Shown: piece after piece, positions 1 through 24,363 of the stretch
Position numbering within the stretch: position 1 is the first letter of the stretch
Layout of the letters: the number at the start of each line of letters is the position of its first letter
Virus record (IMG/VR): IMGVR_UViG_3300042922_000265
Span: 103,374 to 167,373 of that record
Length of the DNA: 64,000 nucleotides
Source of the DNA: a virus
Strand: one strand, 5' to 3'
Notes under the pieces: model-generated
The model's database searches: none
The model's input: the letters and a program-made list of their open reading frames with translations, nothing else
What the model was told of the DNA's origin: nothing
Position numbers and translations under genes: made by a program

Positions 1-2024
1 ATGGCCTCGGCGACATGCTGGTAGTGCTTGCGGCTCATGGCCTCCAGCAGCATGTTGTAGCCGTTGACGCTCAGGTCGTAGTGACGCGCGATCTTGAGGG
101 CGTGACCGGCCAGAGCGAGCTGACGGCTGGCTTCCTTCTTCTCGCTGGAGCCCGAGTCGCTGCCGCCGCCCGAGGACTCACCGCCTCCGGCGGGAGCCGC
201 AGGTGCTGCCGGGGCTGGCGGTGCCATACCGGCCTGCTGCGACGCGGCGGCTGCCGGGTCCACAGCGCTCTGCGGACTGACGTCCACGGTGCCTTCCGGC
301 GGGGTGACGTCCAGCGGATTGGCGGCCTGCTCGACCGACCGCGCGAACTCGATCGCCTGAACCGCCTGCTGCAGCGGGTCGATGATCATCTGGTATTCCT
401 GCGTCTTCTGGTCAACCAGCTGCGTGACAGCCTGGCCAGCCTGATCCAGCAGGGCACCGTTGTCTACACCAGGTGTAGTCGGAGCGGCAGGCGGAGCCGA
501 TGGGTCCGGGGCCGCTCCTGGTGCGGCAGGGGCAGCCGGGGCCGGAGCGGCGGCGGCGGGCTGCTCACCAAAAGACTGCTTGCGCCGTCCCATGTGCGGC
601 GGAGGTCCACCAGGACCTGACGACGGCCCTTGTGGGGCACCTCCGGCGCTTTCCATCAGGATCTGCTCCAGGGTGCCCGGAGGCAGGCCCAGCGCGTCCT
701 CGATCTGCTCTACAGCCACCAGTTCGGTATCCGGCGGTAGGGCTCCTGCGGCGTCGGGAGCGTATTCCTCGACTCCCGAGAAGTCATCCTGAGCCAGCGG
801 CGGAGCGTCTGACAGATCCGGCGGTCCCGGAGGTGCTTGCGGGTCGCCGGGCGGTGGCCCAGCAGGATCGCCGCCGTCTTCAGGACCGAGATCAGGTGGC
901 CCAGGCGGAGCTTCAGGATCACCAGCCGGTCCCGCATCGTCCGCCGGAGGGCCGGGTGCCTCTTCAGGCGCATCCGAAGGCGGGCCATCTTCACCCCCAT
1001 CCGAGAACGGGTTCTCCGACGAACCGCCACTGTCACTGTCTGACGAGTCGCCATCGTTGCTCTCGGTGTCGTCGGACTCCGACTCGCCGCCCTTCTCAGC
1101 CGCGCCCGACGGCGGTCCGTCGCTGTCGGTGTCGCTGCCCTCAGGACCGTCGGTGTCCTTGTCGTCCGAGCCGCTGCTGGACTCGCTGTCGTGGCTGTCC
1201 GACGAGTCATCGTCGTCGCAGTCGCAGTTCTCGTCGGCCTGGCGAATCAGGTTCGCGAGCATGAAGTAGGTGGAGTCGTCGATGCCGGTGTCGGCATAGT
1301 GGTTCAGGGTGGACAGCTTGGCCACGCGCAGACCGTTGTCGCTGGCGAAGTCCTTGTACAGCTCCACGGCCAGACGGCGCGCTTCCCGGTGAGTTCCGGT
1401 GTCGCCACCCTCGCTGAAATTGCGCTCGACCTTCTCTGGTCCGCCCTGGTCCACCGAGTCCAGGTAGGCGTCGAAGTTGCCCTCCGGGATCAGGTCACCG
1501 TCGTCGAAGTCCTCGGCCAGCAGCTGGCGCGCGGCGTGGCGCGGGTCCTTGTGCTTGGGGACGTTGGGGTCCTTGTTCTTGCCCTCGGCATCTGAGCCGT
1601 CCCCGGTGTTGGTCTCGACCTCATCGGTGACCGACTTGTCGCCGTCCTGGACTTTCTTGTACTGGGAATCGGAGATGGTGCGGCTGTCGCCGTCGCCATC
1701 ATCCTTCGGCTTCTTGGTGGGGTCGTCGGAGTTGTCCTCGCCCAGGGTGGCCACGAACTCACGCTTCATCGCGTTGTGAACGCGGCGCATGACTCCGGTG
1801 TTGGGGAAGGCTCCGGCAGCCTCGATGGTCTTGCGGATGTCCGCCTTGGCGTGGTGCCAGCGGTCCTCGAACTCGTCCTTGCCGGTGCTGCCCATGAGGA
1901 ACGGTCCGTAATCGTCCCGGACGTTCTGGACTGCGGTGGCCAGTCGGGTGGCTGCCACCCGTGCCTGCCGCTGTGGTGCCTGCTGGGCGTCTACATCCGC
2001 CTCAAACAGCCCGAAGTCACTCAT
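1..2024 (-). CDS. Large acidic/Pro-rich low-complexity protein, 3' end outside window (possibly virion-associated)
   Basis: ATG at 2024 preceded by GGGAGTGAGCAGGGA; hand translation stays open to the window edge (MSDFGLFEADVDAQQ...). Absent from the ORF track because no stop is in the window. Confidence 0.8.
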   Translation of the reverse strand, partial: MSDFGLFEADVDAQQAPQRQARVAATRLATAVQNVRDDYGPFLMGSTGKDEFEDRWHHAKADIRKTIEAAGAFPNTGVMRRVHNAMKREFVATLGEDNSDDPTKKPKDDGDGDSRTISDSQYKKVQDGDKSVTDEVETNTGDGSDAEGKNKDPNVPKHKDPRHAARQLLAEDFDDGDLIPEGNFDAYLDSVDQGGPEKVERNFSEGGDTGTHREARRLAVELYKDFASDNGLRVAKLSTLNHYADTGIDDSTYFMLANLIRQADENCDCDDDDSSDSHDSESSSGSDDKDTDGPEGSDTDSDGPPSGAAEKGGESESDDTESNDGDSSDSDSGGSSENPFSDGGEDGPPSDAPEEAPGPPADDAGPAGDPEAPPGPPDLGPEDGGDPAGPPPGDPQAPPGPPDLSDAPPLAQDDFSGVEEYAPDAAGALPPDTELVAVEQIEDALGLPPGTLEQILMESAGGAPQGPSSGPGGPPPHMGRRKQSFGEQPAAAAPAPAAPAAPGAAPDPSAPPAAPTTPGVDNGALLDQAGQAVTQLVDQKTQEYQMIIDPLQQAVQAIEFARSVEQAANPLDVTPPEGTVDVSPQSAVDPAAAASQQAGMAPPAPAAPAAPAGGGESSGGGSDSGSSEKKEASRQLALAGHALKIARHYDLSVNGYNMLLEAMSRKHYQHVAEA

Positions 2025-2089
2025 TCCCTGCTCACTCCCAGTTGAAGGTGTTCTACACCTTCTGGAAGCTGCTGCAGGTTTCTACAGGT

Positions 2090-2209
2090 TGGCTGGCCCT
2101 CCCCCGTTACAGGGGACCTCCCTCGCGCTCTCTCGACGGTCTATGCGCACTACTCCGTCGGTGCCCCGCTCAGTTCGCCACCGTCAGTTGCAACATCGGG
2201 TGGAGGCCA
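2090..2209 (-). ncRNA. Structured RNA with acceptor-like stem ending G-CCA
   Basis: 5' TGGCCT pairs with GGGCCA, followed by G-CCA; internal stems CCACC/GGTGG, CGACGG/CCGTCG and CCCC/GGGG; abuts the CUA tRNA. Confidence 0.45.
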
Positions 2210-2211
2210 TG

Positions 2212-2282
2212 CGGCCCATCCCGGAGTCGAACCGGGCTATCGCTGGGGTTAGAAGCCAGCTAGGTCGCCAGACCAATGAGCC
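2212..2282 (-). tRNA. tRNA with CUA anticodon (amber suppressor / tRNA-Pyl-like architecture)
   Basis: Acceptor GGCTCAT/ATGGGCC, G73; D arm GGTC-TGGC-GACC; anticodon arm GCTGG-C-TTCTAAC-C-CCAGC; T arm CCCGG-TTCGACT-CCGGG. Confidence 0.75.
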
Positions 2283-2283
2283 T

Positions 2284-2317
2284 TGGTGCTGCGGGTGGGT
2301 TTGACGCCACCCGCAAC
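2284..2317 (-). ncRNA. 34-nt minihelix ending ACCA (copy 1)
   Basis: GTTGCGGGTGG-CGTCAAAC-CCACCCGCAGC-ACCA. Confidence 0.65.
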
Positions 2318-2318
2318 G

Positions 2319-2380
2319 CGCCCGAGCGAGGCTTTGAACCTCTACACTCTCGCGCCTCCGAAGAGGTGCACGTCTCGGGC
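2319..2380 (-). ncRNA. tRNA-like RNA with a UUCG hairpin instead of D/anticodon arms
   Basis: Acceptor GCCCGAG/CTCGGGC, G73; T arm GAGG-TTCAAAG-CCTC; internal CCTC-TTCG-GAGG. Confidence 0.6.
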
Positions 2381-2381
2381 C

Positions 2382-2415
2382 TGGTGCTGCGGGTGGCCGT
2401 TAAGCCACCCGCAAC
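2382..2415 (-). ncRNA. 34-nt minihelix ending ACCA (copy 2)
   Basis: GTTGCGGGTGGC-TTAACG-GCCACCCGCAGC-ACCA (12 bp). Confidence 0.65.
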
Positions 2416-2416
2416 G

Positions 2417-2521
2417 TGACCGGGGAGGGAATCGAACCCAACCCCTTTCCCGGTTGCCCTGCTCTGGTGAGCGCTCACCTCGGCGATCTTCCCGGTTCCG
2501 GTGCTCCTATTGCACCCGGCC
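2417..2521 (-). ncRNA. tRNA-like RNA (T-loop plus acceptor-like stem, no canonical anticodon arm)
   Basis: GGCCGGG/CCCGGTC-A; GGG-TTCGATT-CCC T-loop; internal GGTGAG/CTCACC. Alternative folds are possible. Confidence 0.5.
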
Positions 2522-2522
2522 T

Positions 2523-2556
2523 TGGTGCCCCCGGTGGCTTTTACCCCACCGGGGAC
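2523..2556 (-). ncRNA. 34-nt minihelix ending ACCA (copy 3)
   Basis: GTCCCCGGTGG-GGTAAAAG-CCACCGGGGGC-ACCA; compensatory changes relative to copies 1 and 2. Confidence 0.65.
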
Positions 2557-2561
2557 AGGTC

Positions 2562-2924
2562 TTACATGGTGAAGGCGTTGCGTAGGCACAGCGGGTAGCT
2601 GGCGCAGAGCGCGGACGCTTTCTCTCCAGGTTCGATGGCGATAGCCGTGAACTCGTCACCGAGATCCGGTTCGACCACCTTGGAGACGACGAGATTGTGT
2701 CCCATGCTGGCCTCGGCGGCCAGAGTCAGGAGTTCGTTCTCGTCATTGACGTTGACGATCACGATGAAGTTGGACGTGCGAATCCACTCGCGCGTAACTT
2801 CGGGGTGCTCGTCGTAGAACTGAAAGGCTGCGTGACACGCCTGAGCGGTCTGCAAGCCTGGGGGGATGTCAGCCCGAACTGCGATGTACAGCTTGTCCAT
2901 CAGTTCGCGGGGCTTCTCATTCAT
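2562..2924 (-). CDS. Peptidyl-tRNA hydrolase, Pth2 family
   Basis: KLYIAVRADIPPGLQTAQACHAA, VVEPDL and TAIAIEP motifs. Confidence 0.8.
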   Translation of the reverse strand: MNEKPRELMDKLYIAVRADIPPGLQTAQACHAAFQFYDEHPEVTREWIRTSNFIVIVNVNDENELLTLAAEASMGHNLVVSKVVEPDLGDEFTAIAIEPGEKASALCASYPLCLRNAFTM

Positions 2925-3005
2925 CTACACCCCATCACTGTAGCACATAGGATCATCGGCCTGTCAACCATACTGACCACTATAGCATCTCTACAGGGTT
3001 TAGAG

Positions 3006-3087
3006 TAGCCGAAGTGGGACTCGAACCCACACGTCCGAAGACACGGCATTTTGAGTACCGCGCGTCTACCAGTTTCGCCATTCGGCC
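3006..3087 (-). tRNA. tRNA-Leu(CAA)
   Basis: Anticodon arm CGGTA-CTCAAAA-TGCCG, long variable arm, GTGGG-TTCGAGT-CCCAC; no encoded CCA. Confidence 0.92.
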
Positions 3088-3130
3088 ATCAGCTCGTCAT
3101 CTCCGGCCTGCAGTCCTCGGATGACTCACG

Positions 3131-3204
3131 TGCCCCTGGGGAGACTCGAACTCCCAACCACACGGGTTTAAACCGTGCCGCTCTACCAATTGGCGTACGA
3201 GGGC
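3131..3204 (-). tRNA. tRNA-Leu(TAA), short variable loop
   Basis: CACGG-TTTAAAC-CCGTG; GGGAG-TTCGAGT-CTCCC; A73. Confidence 0.88.
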
Positions 3205-3209
3205 CTACG

Positions 3210-3282
3210 TACTCCGAGCGGGACTCGAACCCGCACTGGGTGGCCTCTCAGACCACTGCCTCTGCCATTGGGCTACCGGAGC
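3210..3282 (-). tRNA. tRNA-Leu(GAG), short variable loop
   Basis: GTGGT-CTGAGAG-GCCAC; GCGGG-TTCGAGT-CCCGC; A73. Confidence 0.88.
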
Positions 3283-3287
3283 TTACG

Positions 3288-3373
3288 TACCTGGAGAGGG
3301 ACTCGAACCCTCACGACCGTCAAAGGCCACTGGATTCTGAGTCCAGCGCGTCTACCAATTCCACCACCCAGGC
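3288..3373 (-). tRNA. tRNA-Leu(CAG)
   Basis: CTGGA-CTCAGAA-TCCAG; long variable arm; GAGGG-TTCGAGT-CCCTC. Confidence 0.92.
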
Positions 3374-3401
3374 ATAGGTGCTGCTCTATTCAGTTGTCAC
3401 G

Positions 3402-3484
3402 CGGAAGGTAGAGGAATCGAACCCCCAGGAATCACCCCGCCCCGGTATTCGACGCCGGTTGCCGACCATTCAGCGGTACCCTCC
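3402..3484 (-). tRNA. tRNA-Ser(CGA)
   Basis: GGAGGGT/ACCTTCC-G73; CCGGC-GTCGAAT-ACCGG; long variable arm. Confidence 0.88.
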
Positions 3485-3496
3485 AAGGTTACTGCG

Positions 3497-3579
3497 CGGA
3501 AGGCGGGAGACTTGAACTCCACGGGGGTTAGTCCGTATCGGTTTAGCAAACCGACTGCATCACCTGATGCTCACCCTCC
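3497..3579 (-). tRNA. tRNA-Ser(GCT)
   Basis: GGAGGGT/GCCTTCC-G73; TCGGT-TTGCTAA-ACCGA; long variable arm. Confidence 0.9.
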
Positions 3580-3661
3580 ATAGCGAGGGCGAACGCCCTC
3601 AACCTACGAAAGTCGTAGGGAGGATGACAAACTCAGGCGTGTGAACATGGGATTGACTGTA

Positions 3662-5080
3662 TCAGAAGCTGTCGCGGCGGGTCAAGGGCCGCTTGGCACG
3701 CCAGTCCTCGTCACGCTGCTGGGCTAGCGGGCGGGCAACCTCCGACTCGGCGAAGGCCCGACCTTCGTCGCTCAAGTTCGGGCTGTGGTGCAGGTCAGGC
3801 TCGATGTTGTCGGTCACGTGATCAAACATCGCGGTGCCAACACCACGGCGCTGCCAATCCGGGTGGACTCGTAGGTCCCAGATCTCACCCTTCTTGCGCG
3901 GGTGATCGCCGATCCACTGCATGTGGCCGACCATCTGGTCACCGACGTGCGCCGAGATCGCAGGAAAGGCACCGGGGTCGACCTTCTCGCTGGGCTGGAT
4001 CACGTCGGGAAAGGGGGCGGCTCCAAGCGGGTGGTGCTGAAAGGTCAGCCCCTCCGGGTACGGACCGTTGAGACCAGCCATCTGGAGAACCCTATGGCCA
4101 CGTTCGGCCTTCGGACGGATGTCGACCATCTCGCCGATGCCGTATTTGTCATGGGTGACGATCCCGTCATGTCCCTTGGCGATCAGGGCGTCAGAAAGAG
4201 CTTGGCCGGTCGCGCCGCCATGGGCCTGACTCAGATCATGCTTCCAGTTGCCATCGTTGTGCGGCATGTACAGCGGGTTCTCGAAACTGACATTGCCGCG
4301 CTCCCACCCAGGGTGGGGCGTACCCGTGGCGTACTGGCCATCGGACATGTACCGGCCCCACGGCTCGACCTTCTGGGCATAGTCATCAGGACCGGCCCAC
4401 TGTCGCACGCCGCCGTTGTTGCGGATGTAGGGCATCGTCACGGCGGCAGTCCGATGAGCGTTCAGGACCATGTCGTTGGGCACGTGCTCGGGATGGTTCG
4501 GCGACCAGCGGATGTCCCAGGGAACGTCAGGGTGGTGCCCACGCCACTTCTTCGGCCACGGGCTGCCCTGCAGGGCTGCAGTGCGGTTCTGTGCCCTCTG
4601 GTCAGCCACCTGGAGGTAGGGCTTCATCTCGGCCTCATTCTGACCAGTGTAGGGGACATGGGCGGGCGTGTACTGCTTCACCGCCGTCCATCCCCAGTCC
4701 GCCGGGTTGTCCTCGGCCTTGGTGACGTGCTGGTCACCAGGATCGTGGTAATCCGGGTCAGACTGTGCCCAGGCGCGACCGGCGCTGGAGAAGTGATTGG
4801 AGTGCCGGATCGGGTAGCTGGCCTCGTAGGTGGCCGGATCGGACTGTGCGTGCTTGAGCATGGCGCTGGCCACGCCCATCCGCTGGAAGTCCGGGTGCAC
4901 GGTGATGGAATCGATCTCACCGTGCGGGTGCCAGTGCAGGTGGCCCAGAGGACGCCCATCCTGGGCGTGCCGCGCCATGATGCCGTTGGACCAGTGTGTG
5001 TCGAACGGCTCGAACGTCAGCGGTGGCAGGTCACCGTTTGCTCCAGCGGTGACGACTCCCCAGAGCCCCCAGGTGTCCAT
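3662..5080 (-). CDS. Multidomain protein with two GNAT acetyltransferase domains
   Basis: Two acetyl-CoA-binding motif A segments: VHPDFQRMGVASAML and VHPDWQRRGVGTAMF. Confidence 0.75.
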   Translation of the reverse strand: MDTWGLWGVVTAGANGDLPPLTFEPFDTHWSNGIMARHAQDGRPLGHLHWHPHGEIDSITVHPDFQRMGVASAMLKHAQSDPATYEASYPIRHSNHFSSAGRAWAQSDPDYHDPGDQHVTKAEDNPADWGWTAVKQYTPAHVPYTGQNEAEMKPYLQVADQRAQNRTAALQGSPWPKKWRGHHPDVPWDIRWSPNHPEHVPNDMVLNAHRTAAVTMPYIRNNGGVRQWAGPDDYAQKVEPWGRYMSDGQYATGTPHPGWERGNVSFENPLYMPHNDGNWKHDLSQAHGGATGQALSDALIAKGHDGIVTHDKYGIGEMVDIRPKAERGHRVLQMAGLNGPYPEGLTFQHHPLGAAPFPDVIQPSEKVDPGAFPAISAHVGDQMVGHMQWIGDHPRKKGEIWDLRVHPDWQRRGVGTAMFDHVTDNIEPDLHHSPNLSDEGRAFAESEVARPLAQQRDEDWRAKRPLTRRDSF

Positions 5081-6118: not shown

Positions 6119-6583
6119 CTAGTAGAGGAGCTGATCGTCAAAGTCCTCGAACGTCGAGGTCTGAGCAGCCGCCACTTTCGGACGGTTGGGGATCAGCTCA
6201 GCCACCTGTGATACGAAAGCCTGCACAGCACGCTGCGCAGCTTCAGGAGTCCAGGTGGAGGTCAAAGTGCGGGCGTGCCGCTGAGCGCGGTACAGCGTTT
6301 CTGAGCGGCTCTCCGGGCATTCATGCTCGGCCAGGAAATTGCTCGCCTCCAGGCGCAGCGTCTGGGCCACCTTGCGGGGGACGCTGGACGTCTTCTCGGA
6401 CGGCTTGTCGTCGTCCCGATCCTCCCAGTTGTCTGGGTCCAGATCGTACTTCTCGTGCTCGCGCTGCGGTGCGTTCTTGGTCTCGGCCCAAGGGACACCA
6501 GCAGTACGGTGGGTCGGTCCTACCGACCGGCGCTGGATGTGCGCGGGCACCGCCAGCGGATCGCGCTCTGCATTCTTGAACAT
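6119..6583 (-). CDS. Hypothetical protein
   Basis: AGGAGG SD; packs with neighbouring genes. Confidence 0.75.
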   Translation of the reverse strand: MFKNAERDPLAVPAHIQRRSVGPTHRTAGVPWAETKNAPQREHEKYDLDPDNWEDRDDDKPSEKTSSVPRKVAQTLRLEASNFLAEHECPESRSETLYRAQRHARTLTSTWTPEAAQRAVQAFVSQVAELIPNRPKVAAAQTSTFEDFDDQLLY

Positions 6584-23196: not shown

Positions 23197-24363
23197 TCAT
23201 GATGCCTCCATCCAATCTGCCAGGTGAGAGATGACGTCCTCGTGGGTCAGTTTGCCCTCATCCAGCCGCAGCTCCCAGAGGAAACGCAACGCCTCGCCCA
23301 CGCGCGGACCCTTGGAGAGGCCGGTCAAATCCATCACCTCGGCACCGGACAGGAAGGGCTCGGGATGACCCTCGGCCTCCAGTAGCGTCTCGATGCGACC
23401 GGAGAGGATGTCATCACCCAGCAGTTCCTCCAGCTGAGGCAGTAGGTCACCAGAGATGGCAACCACTCGCCGCACCATAGGCCAGGTCCATTCCGACACC
23501 TCCTGGAATCGCTGCACCCAGGTCACCAGGTTGGTGACGGAACGCTGACGCTCAACGCTCATCCTGAAGCGCTTGGTGATGTCGGTGACCTTGTGCGGGT
23601 CCACCTCCAGCAGCAGGTCCGCCCACGCGGACTCCAGAGTGGCGCGCTGCTTGATCGACGGCGCGGCGATCAGCTCGGGCAGGATCTCCTTGAGCAGGCC
23701 GGTGTGCAGCATCTCCGACAGCCCCCGGAACGGGTCCGGGCTCATCAGCATCCGATCCATCTCCACAGCCTTGCGCTCAGCACTGACCATGTGGATCAGC
23801 TCACGGTTGGCCGCGATGGCCAGCTTCTCCGCGTCACCGACCTTGAAGCCCAGCTGAGCAGCGAAGCGCACTGCGCGCATCATCCGCAGCGGGTCGTCGG
23901 TGAAGGTCTTGACCGGGTCCATCGGCGTCTTGAGCAGCCCCAGGGACAGGGCGGTCTTGCCGTTGAACGGGTCGATGACGTGGTCGTTGAGGCCGAGCTG
24001 AGTAACCTGCATGGCCATCGCGTTGATGGTGAAGTCGCGGCGCTGCAGATCCTCCTCCAGGACCTCGGTGAACGCCACCTCCGGCTTGCGGCCCGGACCG
24101 TCGGTGCGCATCGTGGTGATCTCCACATCGAATCCGTCACGGCGCGCGGCGATGGTTCCGAACCGGGCACCGACGTCCCAGATGGCGTCAGCCCACGAGG
24201 CCAAGATCGCCTGGATCTCATCCGGCTTGGCCGTGGTGGTGAAGTCCCAGTCCTTGACCTCGCGGTTCAGGAGTTTGTCCCGGACGCTGCCGCCGACCAG
24301 GAAGAGCCGATGGCCCGCCTGATCGAACTTCAGCCCGAGGCTGGAGAGAAGTTGGGGGTGCAT
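23197..24363 (-). CDS. cca: CCA-adding tRNA nucleotidyltransferase (class II)
   Basis: LVGGSVRD..DWDFTT, EITTMR, DLQRRDFTINAMA, DDPLRMMRAVRF; TTGACC-18-TAGAAT-7-ATG(24363). Confidence 0.9.
   Translation of the reverse strand: MHPQLLSSLGLKFDQAGHRLFLVGGSVRDKLLNREVKDWDFTTTAKPDEIQAILASWADAIWDVGARFGTIAARRDGFDVEITTMRTDGPGRKPEVAFTEVLEEDLQRRDFTINAMAMQVTQLGLNDHVIDPFNGKTALSLGLLKTPMDPVKTFTDDPLRMMRAVRFAAQLGFKVGDAEKLAIAANRELIHMVSAERKAVEMDRMLMSPDPFRGLSEMLHTGLLKEILPELIAAPSIKQRATLESAWADLLLEVDPHKVTDITKRFRMSVERQRSVTNLVTWVQRFQEVSEWTWPMVRRVVAISGDLLPQLEELLGDDILSGRIETLLEAEGHPEPFLSGAEVMDLTGLSKGPRVGEALRFLWELRLDEGKLTHEDVISHLADWMEAS

Follow-up and report, generated by a model that had tools for sequence, protein, structure and literature searches.

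Conserved 34-nucleotide RNA minihelices resembling the tRNA acceptor end alternate with tRNA-like RNAs behind a Pth2 gene of Myrna-like mycobacteriophages

Why would a phage carry, directly behind a Pth2-family gene, several copies of a short hairpin that looks like the bare acceptor end of a tRNA? The question is raised by the window analysed here, 64,000 nucleotides (nt) of the IMG/VR virus record IMGVR_UViG_3300042922_000265 (positions 103,374 to 167,373), which form the end of a 167,373-bp phage genome that is complete and has terminal repeats. The DNA of the region in question is about 75% identical to that of the Mycobacterium phages Myrna, Phabba and ScoobyDoobyDoo (genus Myrnavirus), and the phage is a Myrna-like mycobacteriophage. 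In this region three hairpins of 34 nt, hereafter called minihelices, alternate with two anticodon-less tRNA-like RNAs, TL1 and TL2, followed by a tRNA(CUA) and then by an RNA that ends in GCCA. Judged from their sequences, the minihelices constitute an RNA family that is under selection and imitates the tRNA acceptor end. The location of Pth2 within the tRNA arrays of cluster C phages has been reported (PMC5966550, PMC7824862), and no published description of phage minihelix arrays was found; what is new is a conserved 34-nt family that alternates with tRNA-like RNAs inside an apparently amber-gated Pth2 unit. In transcript order, the unit consists of the following features.

2967-2937, minus strand: promoter-like site, with a -35 element at 2967-2962 and an extended -10 element at 2942-2937, from inspection of the sequence only
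2562-2930, minus strand: Pth2-family gene (PF01981) including GTG-TAG; annotated open reading frame (ORF) 2924-2562, 120 codons
2556-2523, minus strand: minihelix 1, 34 nt, 11-bp stem, 8-nt loop, 3' GCACCA; -25.6 kcal/mol, z -4.0; 53.4 bits, E 4.7e-9
2521-2417, minus strand: tRNA-like RNA TL1, 105 nt, between minihelices 1 and 2
2415-2382, minus strand: minihelix 2, 34 nt, 13-bp stem, 3' GCACCA; -26.9 kcal/mol, z -6.1; 48.6 bits
2380-2319, minus strand: tRNA-like RNA TL2, 62 nt; -30.3 kcal/mol, z -2.9
2317-2284, minus strand: minihelix 3, 34 nt, 3' GCACCA; -22.7 kcal/mol, z -4.5; 52.5 bits
2282-2212, minus strand: tRNA(CUA), which reads UAG; called by ARAGORN, discriminator G73, no encoded CCA
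2209-2090, minus strand: structured RNA of 120 nt with a GCCA end, the last unit of the array

The units were parsed by eye; automatic tiling merged neighbouring ones. Minihelix 1 starts after a gap of 5 nt from the Pth2 stop codon, and the units of the array are separated by single nucleotides, with 2-3 nt before the final GCCA-ended RNA. An earlier note on this DNA had proposed this order, these coordinates and these spacers, and they hold on the minus strand (from the sequence, and from ARAGORN for the tRNA(CUA)). Its description of the hairpins also stands, apart from the stems, which measure 11-13 rather than 11-12 bp. Each of the three window minihelices is exactly 34 nt long and forms a single hairpin with a G1-C pair, a U2.G wobble and a free 3' ACCA. 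Their folding energies (-22.7 to -26.9 kcal/mol, z -4 to -6) are matched by none of 200 shuffled sequences. The stems vary between copies. Minihelices 2 and 3 have identical stems and differ by their loop alone, and the compensatory swap formerly ascribed to copy 3 is real, but the odd copy is the Pth2-proximal one (2556-2523), which is copy 1 in transcript order.

These hairpins stand out from the rest of the genome. A covariance model built from five copies hits only the three minihelix sites in the entire genome (E 5e-9 to 5e-8), the next best hit having an E value of 0.1. The model scores 48-53 bits on the minus strand and 16-20 on the plus strand, a gap that, together with the U.G wobble, indicates that the functional strand is that of the tRNA operon RNA. 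A plain genome scan for a hairpin followed by NCCA gives about as many weak hits as shuffled sequence does, and among its hits only the three minihelices are interrelated and clustered on one strand. The generic version of such a scan (7-bp closure plus NCCA) yields about 180 hits on each strand and carries no information in a genome this rich in GC.

The class to which the minihelices belong can be narrowed down by comparing them with known RNAs. They are single hairpins, not cloverleaves with D, anticodon and T arms, and neither ARAGORN nor Rfam calls a tRNA at their coordinates. With gathering cut-offs, the Rfam scan of the whole window returns four tRNAs only and no family that matches the minihelices; with E<=10, the scan of 1800-4200 adds only weak tRNA-Sec-like matches, with no transfer-messenger RNA (tmRNA) and no YrlA. 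A tmRNA or a tRNA-like domain of that type is not indicated either, as no tmRNA is detected by ARAGORN or Rfam (E up to 10) and the 3:70 pair is C-G or U-A. What the hairpins do possess is the anatomy of an acceptor/T-arm minihelix, namely a continuous helix of 11-13 bp, G1-C72, and a discriminator followed by a single-stranded CCA. The loop departs from that model: in place of the 7-nt UUCRANY loop closed by G53-C61, it has 8 nt (4 nt in minihelix 2) and its consensus contains GUCAA, which is GNRA-like and no T loop. The acceptor stem may resemble those of tRNA-Glu and tRNA-Arg.

The evidence for selection comes from the relatives, where the hairpin and its ACCA recur after Pth2. Two copies of the 34-nt element follow Pth2 in Myrna and two in Phabba, ScoobyDoobyDoo has one 35-nt copy, and the element is also present in the uncultured relatives L032, L039, L042, L043 and L048, whose Pth2 proteins are 46-68% identical. 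Ten distinct copies from seven phage lineages align without gaps. All 110 base-pair cells of this alignment are paired (against 73% after shuffling and about 50% with a slid partner), and 8 of the 11 pairs have changed on both sides in a compensatory manner. G1-C72, the two innermost G-C pairs, two loop bases and the CCA (10/10) are invariant, A73 is present in 9 of the 10 copies, and pair 2:71 is U.G in seven, C-G in two and G-C in one. The length is 34 nt in all ten. The earlier note had named the loss of the ACCA tail or of the 34-nt length in homologous loci as the outcome that would speak against it, and both are thus retained.

As a chance control, a 16-base skeleton of the minihelix was scanned for in IMG/VR and in bacterial genomes. 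All 11 pairs are formed in 6 of the 57 IMG/VR matches and in none of 120 among the matches listed for the bacterial genomes, where pairing peaks at 6-7 of 11; the bacterial scan serves as a control for chance and does not prove absence from bacteria. One copy outside the Pth2 loci deserves attention. The phage L100 (IMGVR_UViG_3300005669_000010, 72 kb) has a solitary 34-nt minihelix at 6393-6426 (11/11 pairs, 43 bits), which is intergenic between two protein genes and just upstream of a ribosome-binding site. No PTH2 gene was found in this phage and its sole tRNA lies 6 kb from the minihelix. The earlier interpretation of the hairpins as acceptor-end mimics is sustained in so far as they form a selected family, whereas their association with Pth2 is weakened by the L100 copy, which keeps alive a role in cis, in RNase P cleavage or RNA stability.

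Comparison of two phage pairs suggests that more than the shape of the hairpin is maintained. Between Myrna and Phabba, a 124-nt block composed of a minihelix, a short tRNA-like RNA and a second minihelix shows a single difference, an inserted base in a spacer, and one more base has been substituted in the 4 nt that separate the Pth2 stop codon from the first minihelix. The flanks of this block have diverged: Pth2 is 84.9% identical (64.7% at third codon positions), the next gene 79% and the adjacent tRNA 66.7%. Likewise, the minihelices of L043 and L048 are identical over 34/34 positions, with 70.5% identity over 190 nt of Pth2 and 57% over the following 100 nt. In both pairs, therefore, the minihelix is unchanged next to flanks that differ by 15-43%; over longer distances, the stems alter only via paired substitutions. 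The perfect pairing, the compensatory changes and the lack of substitutions next to diverged flanks all indicate purifying selection. From these alignments, selection acts on the sequence of the minihelix and not on its shape alone, which is more than a generic hairpin needs and argues for a specific partner.

The composition of the arrays tells a complementary story. In all loci examined, the first unit after Pth2 starts 4-16 nt past the stop codon and has the same acceptor stem and ACCA, with an interior that ranges from an 8-nt loop to two extra hairpins. The version with two internal hairpins (65-70 nt) occurs in ScoobyDoobyDoo (in second position), Catera, Cane17, L032 and L042. A constant acceptor stem and ACCA around a variable interior indicates that selection acts on the acceptor end. 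The other array units are short tRNA-like RNAs in which an acceptor stem is combined with one hairpin and a T arm; most of them end in ACCA or GCCA. Which units are present changes from lineage to lineage, and butt-joined tRNA-like RNAs with an encoded CCA are found in every GC-rich lineage examined. Parts of these arrays are labelled "tRNA-OTHER (NNN)" in the GenBank record of Phabba and "tRNA-Ser" in that of Myrna.

The gene in front of the array adds a second conserved feature, which the earlier note overlooked. The product of the ORF matches PF01981 (E 3e-10, 40.7 bits for a gathering cut-off of 23, profile positions 2-103 of 115) and its sequence identifies it as a member of the PTH2 family; relatives of the protein occur in 213 phage records, almost exclusively from mycobacteriophages. 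A GTG codon (2930-2928) and a TAG codon (2927-2925) precede the annotated ORF in frame and without a gap, and a start codon immediately followed by TAG also precedes Pth2 in L001, L002, L003, L012, L032, L035, L036 and L038-L043. In the window, the TAG is probably codon 2 of Pth2. In at least L036, L040 and L041 there is no start codon between the TAG and the conserved Pth2 domain. A promoter-like site whose -10 element lies 6-7 nt from the start codon before the TAG is found in Myrna, Phabba, Catera, L032, L035, L036, L042 and L043. In the window, the transcript predicted from this site would start with the GTG at 2930, and the Pth2 mRNA is thus probably leaderless and would begin with the start codon and the TAG. 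Leaderless mRNAs are common in mycobacteria. Pth2 hence looks like a leaderless amber-gated gene for which the tRNA(CUA) that closes the unit would be the key. By the same comparison, the conserved unit is made up of the putative promoter, the start-TAG Pth2, the ACCA-ended RNAs and the predicted TAG-reading tRNA, and it is the start-TAG that links Pth2 to the tRNA(CUA). There is no sign of genome-wide recoding of TAG: standard-code ORFs of at least 150 aa span 82% of the genome, and TAG is the stop codon of 76 of its 279 long ORFs.

Several scenarios may explain why the acceptor end is maintained. The one that we favor, tentatively and as somewhat short of probable, is that RNase P frees small RNAs which then work in trans, mimicking the acceptor end for a partner that recognises a specific sequence. 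The analysis shows the structure of the hairpins, their conservation, copy number and genomic context and the CCA that they encode; from these we infer the processing, the accumulation and the action in trans. The hairpins would be genes for minimal tRNA-derived RNAs, with an acceptor-type helix of 11-13 bp, a GNRA-like cap and a ready-made ACCA, and they would be transcribed inside the unit formed by the promoter, the start-TAG Pth2, the ACCA-ended RNAs and the tRNA(CUA). RNase P would cut at G1 of each butt-joined unit and leave ACCA plus one nucleotide, in which case RNase Z and the CCA-adding enzyme would be unnecessary. The released RNAs of 34-35 nt would then act in trans by offering a tRNA-like 3' end to a protein that reads the acceptor arm only, including its sequence. 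Candidates for this partner are the phage Pth2, an aminoacyl-tRNA synthetase, and a host enzyme or toxin that detects the CCA end or modifies it, for which the minihelix RNAs may serve as competitor, decoy or regulator. The decoys for tRNA 3'-end toxins and the amino-acid carriers proposed by the earlier note would be special cases of such action. The presence of two to three minimal-size copies per array would suit a stoichiometric ligand. The distribution of encoded CCA also counts in favor of mimics acting in trans. In agreement with the earlier note, the minihelices encode CCA and none of the 35 ordinary tRNA genes called by ARAGORN in the 167-kb genome does (0/35); the phage also encodes a CCA-adding-type nucleotidyltransferase (PF01743, 114 bits, 399-aa frame, window ~23932-24306, minus strand). 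Such an enzyme fits a set of 35 tRNA genes without a single encoded CCA.

Several observations weigh against this scenario. The minimal determinants of an RNase P substrate are a G at +1, a helix of 11-12 bp and a 3' RCCA, and the sequence of every copy shows the G at +1, the helix and the RCCA (with U or C at position -1 in most copies), so that every conserved feature of the minihelix is also an RNase P substrate determinant. The loop is not a canonical T loop, and two of the three window loops deviate from the family consensus. The lone L100 copy, in a phage without PTH2, looks more like a cis element. Finally, the identity of the block shared by Myrna and Phabba could partly stem from recombination.

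The first of these points leads directly to the main rival of action in trans, a role of the hairpins in cis as punctuation or for stability. They would be minimal RNase P substrates or 3'-end stabilisers that free the Pth2 mRNA and the CCA-less tRNA-like RNAs, the 34-mers being by-products. Besides the coincidence of conserved features with RNase P determinants and the solitary intergenic copy of L100, such a role would account for the start of the first unit always falling 4-16 nt after the Pth2 stop codon and for the fact that minihelices 2 and 3 of the window each come after a CCA-less unit. Nevertheless, the adjacent tRNA-like units already provide RNase P sites, so that two or three extra copies are redundant, a fixed length of 34 nt is not required, and the conservation of the full sequence, loop included, next to flanks diverged by 15-43% exceeds the needs of a cleavage signal. 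Punctuation in cis seems on balance somewhat unlikely, though it is the strongest of the alternatives.

A more elaborate version of the trans-acting scenario would treat the minihelices and the larger ACCA-ended tRNA-like RNAs together as stoichiometric decoys or regulators for tRNA 3'-end enzymes, which, with the amber-gated Pth2, a private tRNA(CUA) and the CCA-adding enzyme, would form a phage island for the protection or control of tRNA ends in the course of infection. Candidate targets of such decoys are MenT/AbiEii-type nucleotidyltransferase toxins, CapRel-type pyrophosphorylating toxSAS, aminoacyl-tRNA-acetylating GNAT toxins and Rel. In this complete form we consider the proposal unlikely.

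The minihelices might instead be aminoacylated and carry or donate amino acids apart from normal decoding, their acylated forms being the substrate of Pth2. Several synthetases charge minihelices in vitro, the sequence retained is the acceptor-stem-specific one (G1-C72, Y2.G71, A73-CCA), and in most loci the minihelices adjoin the gene of an esterase for acylated tRNA ends. Yet they match no known acceptor identity set, as they have no G3.U70 (alanine), no G-1 (histidine) and no U73 (glycine, cysteine), the conserved synteny contains no transferase, the GNAT gene upstream (see below) is not conserved in Phabba or ScoobyDoobyDoo, and the L100 copy is without Pth2. We regard a carrier role as improbable.

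The remaining interpretations fit poorly. That the hairpins are terminators or attenuators without a U tract ("I-shaped"), of the type proposed for mycobacteria, is very doubtful: they are GC-rich, one lies 5 nt past a stop codon, the L100 copy comes after a gene and a terminator scan of 2090-2560 found no canonical terminator, but the array hairpins have no following U tract and run into ACCA and the next unit, they sit upstream of the tRNA(CUA) that the unit needs, and termination leaves unexplained the invariant single-stranded CCA, the G1-C72 pair and the butt-joined tRNA-like neighbours. Equally little credit can be given to the idea that the hairpins have no function of their own and are what is left of duplicated tRNA genes or mark the edges of mobile tRNA-like cassettes or introns, for, although unit content turns over between lineages and TL2 is flanked by minihelices 2 and 3 as a direct repeat, purifying selection in seven lineages contradicts decay and the hairpins lie between self-closed genes, not within them. 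The tRNA-intron reading in particular was discarded, since each flanking unit is closed by a 7-bp acceptor stem of its own.

The other members of the array are related to tRNAs to various degrees. TL1 has an acceptor stem, a D arm and a canonical T arm, the anticodon arm being replaced by a long arm with a palindromic hairpin; CCA is not encoded (a C follows A73), and Rfam gives a weak tRNA-Sec-like match of 17.7 bits. Homologues of TL1 (L032 1940-2044, L035 1120-1224 and L042 790-897) reveal compensatory change at 7 pairs. Across this family, the long arm is tipped by a conserved hairpin of 14 nt that forms a perfect palindrome and could serve for kissing dimers or for the binding of a protein. 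TL2 is reduced to a 7-bp acceptor stem, one UUCG-loop hairpin and a T-arm-like hairpin, without anticodon or encoded CCA. The GCCA-ended RNA comprises a short acceptor-like helix and a hairpin at the T-arm position. It is conserved in Phabba and absent in Myrna and ScoobyDoobyDoo, has a counterpart at L001 2038-2156, and has no Rfam or tmRNA match. Both sides have changed in 7 of its 29 pairs and its terminal hairpin has been swapped entirely; the acceptor-like helix has G3.U70 in Phabba and U1-A72 in the window.

The tRNA(CUA) ends the array in almost all relatives. In the window (2212-2282), the loop-proximal pair of its anticodon stem is mismatched (C.C, and A.C in L039) and its D arm is small; its homologues are labelled Arg(tct), Ser or Pyl(cta) in public records. 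At the distant Pth2 locus L046, a tRNA with the anticodon UUA (1636-1708), which reads UAA, takes the place of tRNA(CUA), and the 50 codons upstream in the Pth2 frame showed no early stop. A further conserved element, the motif CTGTAGAA with a nested hairpin, follows the RNA array and precedes the large downstream gene, a homologue of Myrna gp87.

Window 2020-2089, minus strand; L002 2136-2210; L003 2091-2165; L035 ~1298-1320: region of the CTGTAGAA motif

The CTGTAG motif recurs upstream of the Pth2 promoter; it may act as a signal, specific to the phage, for regulation or processing. A 472-aa protein encoded immediately upstream of the tRNA unit (window 3665-5080, minus strand) has a GNAT acetyltransferase domain at its C-terminus; a promoter-like site (3685-3656) overlaps the end of this gene, which is not conserved at this position in Phabba or ScoobyDoobyDoo. 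A tRNA-Ser-like sequence at 3403-3484 of the window (minus strand; 29 bits with the Rfam tRNA-Sec model) is not called by ARAGORN; its anticodon region is CGA and the loop is closed by a mismatch.

How do the minihelices compare with known RNAs of this kind? Synthetic acceptor/T-arm minihelices are model substrates for RNase P, for the CCA-adding enzyme and for some synthetases. The phage minihelices share with them the continuous helix of about 12 bp, G1-C72, the discriminator, the single-stranded CCA and a size of about 35 nt. They differ from them in being natural, gene-encoded, multi-copy and conserved, in their preference for U2.G71 and in their cap, an 8-nt GNRA-like loop instead of the 7-nt T loop. 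Among phage RNAs, species 1 and 2 of T4 (rnaC and rnaD) and the stable RNAs of T5 are co-transcribed with phage tRNAs, measure 78-140 nt and have an unexplained function. Like the minihelices, they are non-decoding, belong to a phage tRNA transcription unit and have tRNA-like ends, but they are larger and more complex and have no sequence relationship to them. We know of no array in T4 or T5 in which such RNAs alternate with tRNA-like RNAs, and of no link to Pth2 or to a suppressor tRNA. Mycobacteriophage DS6A encodes an RNA consisting of the tRNA-like domain of tmRNA only, which was suggested to titrate SmpB (PMC4131195). This RNA is likewise phage-encoded and cut down to little beyond an acceptor/T-arm mimic; unlike the minihelices, whose 3:70 pair is Watson-Crick, it has a G3.U70 and a T-arm signature detected by tmRNA finders. 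YrlA and other bacterial Y RNAs occur in cluster C1 mycobacteriophages, where they adjoin Ro60 (PMC4201824). They are tRNA mimics encoded by relatives of the present phage, which also has a Ro60/TROVE homologue in its genome (no RtcB was found there), but YrlA mimics the T/D elbow, binds Ro60, has no free ACCA acceptor end and is located beside Ro60. Finally, mascRNA and the t-elements of plant mitochondria are tRNA-shaped modules as well, and recruit tRNA-processing enzymes; the minihelices are repeated inside an RNA-only array and, except in L100, lie neither within a tRNA gene nor between protein genes.

Acceptor-arm minihelices have for decades been a laboratory construct. Their occurrence here as natural genes under selection implies that a bare tRNA acceptor end is of use to some process in infected mycobacteria. 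The Pth2 gene, with its start-TAG, its probably leaderless mRNA and a suppressor tRNA of its own, is noteworthy by itself. Since the relatives Myrna, Phabba and ScoobyDoobyDoo are in culture and grow on M. smegmatis mc2 155, the question is directly testable. The partner of the minihelices, once found, could bring to light a new level of conflict between phage and host, or of control, at the tRNA 3' end, and could help explain the decades-old puzzle of the non-decoding stable RNAs in phage tRNA clusters.

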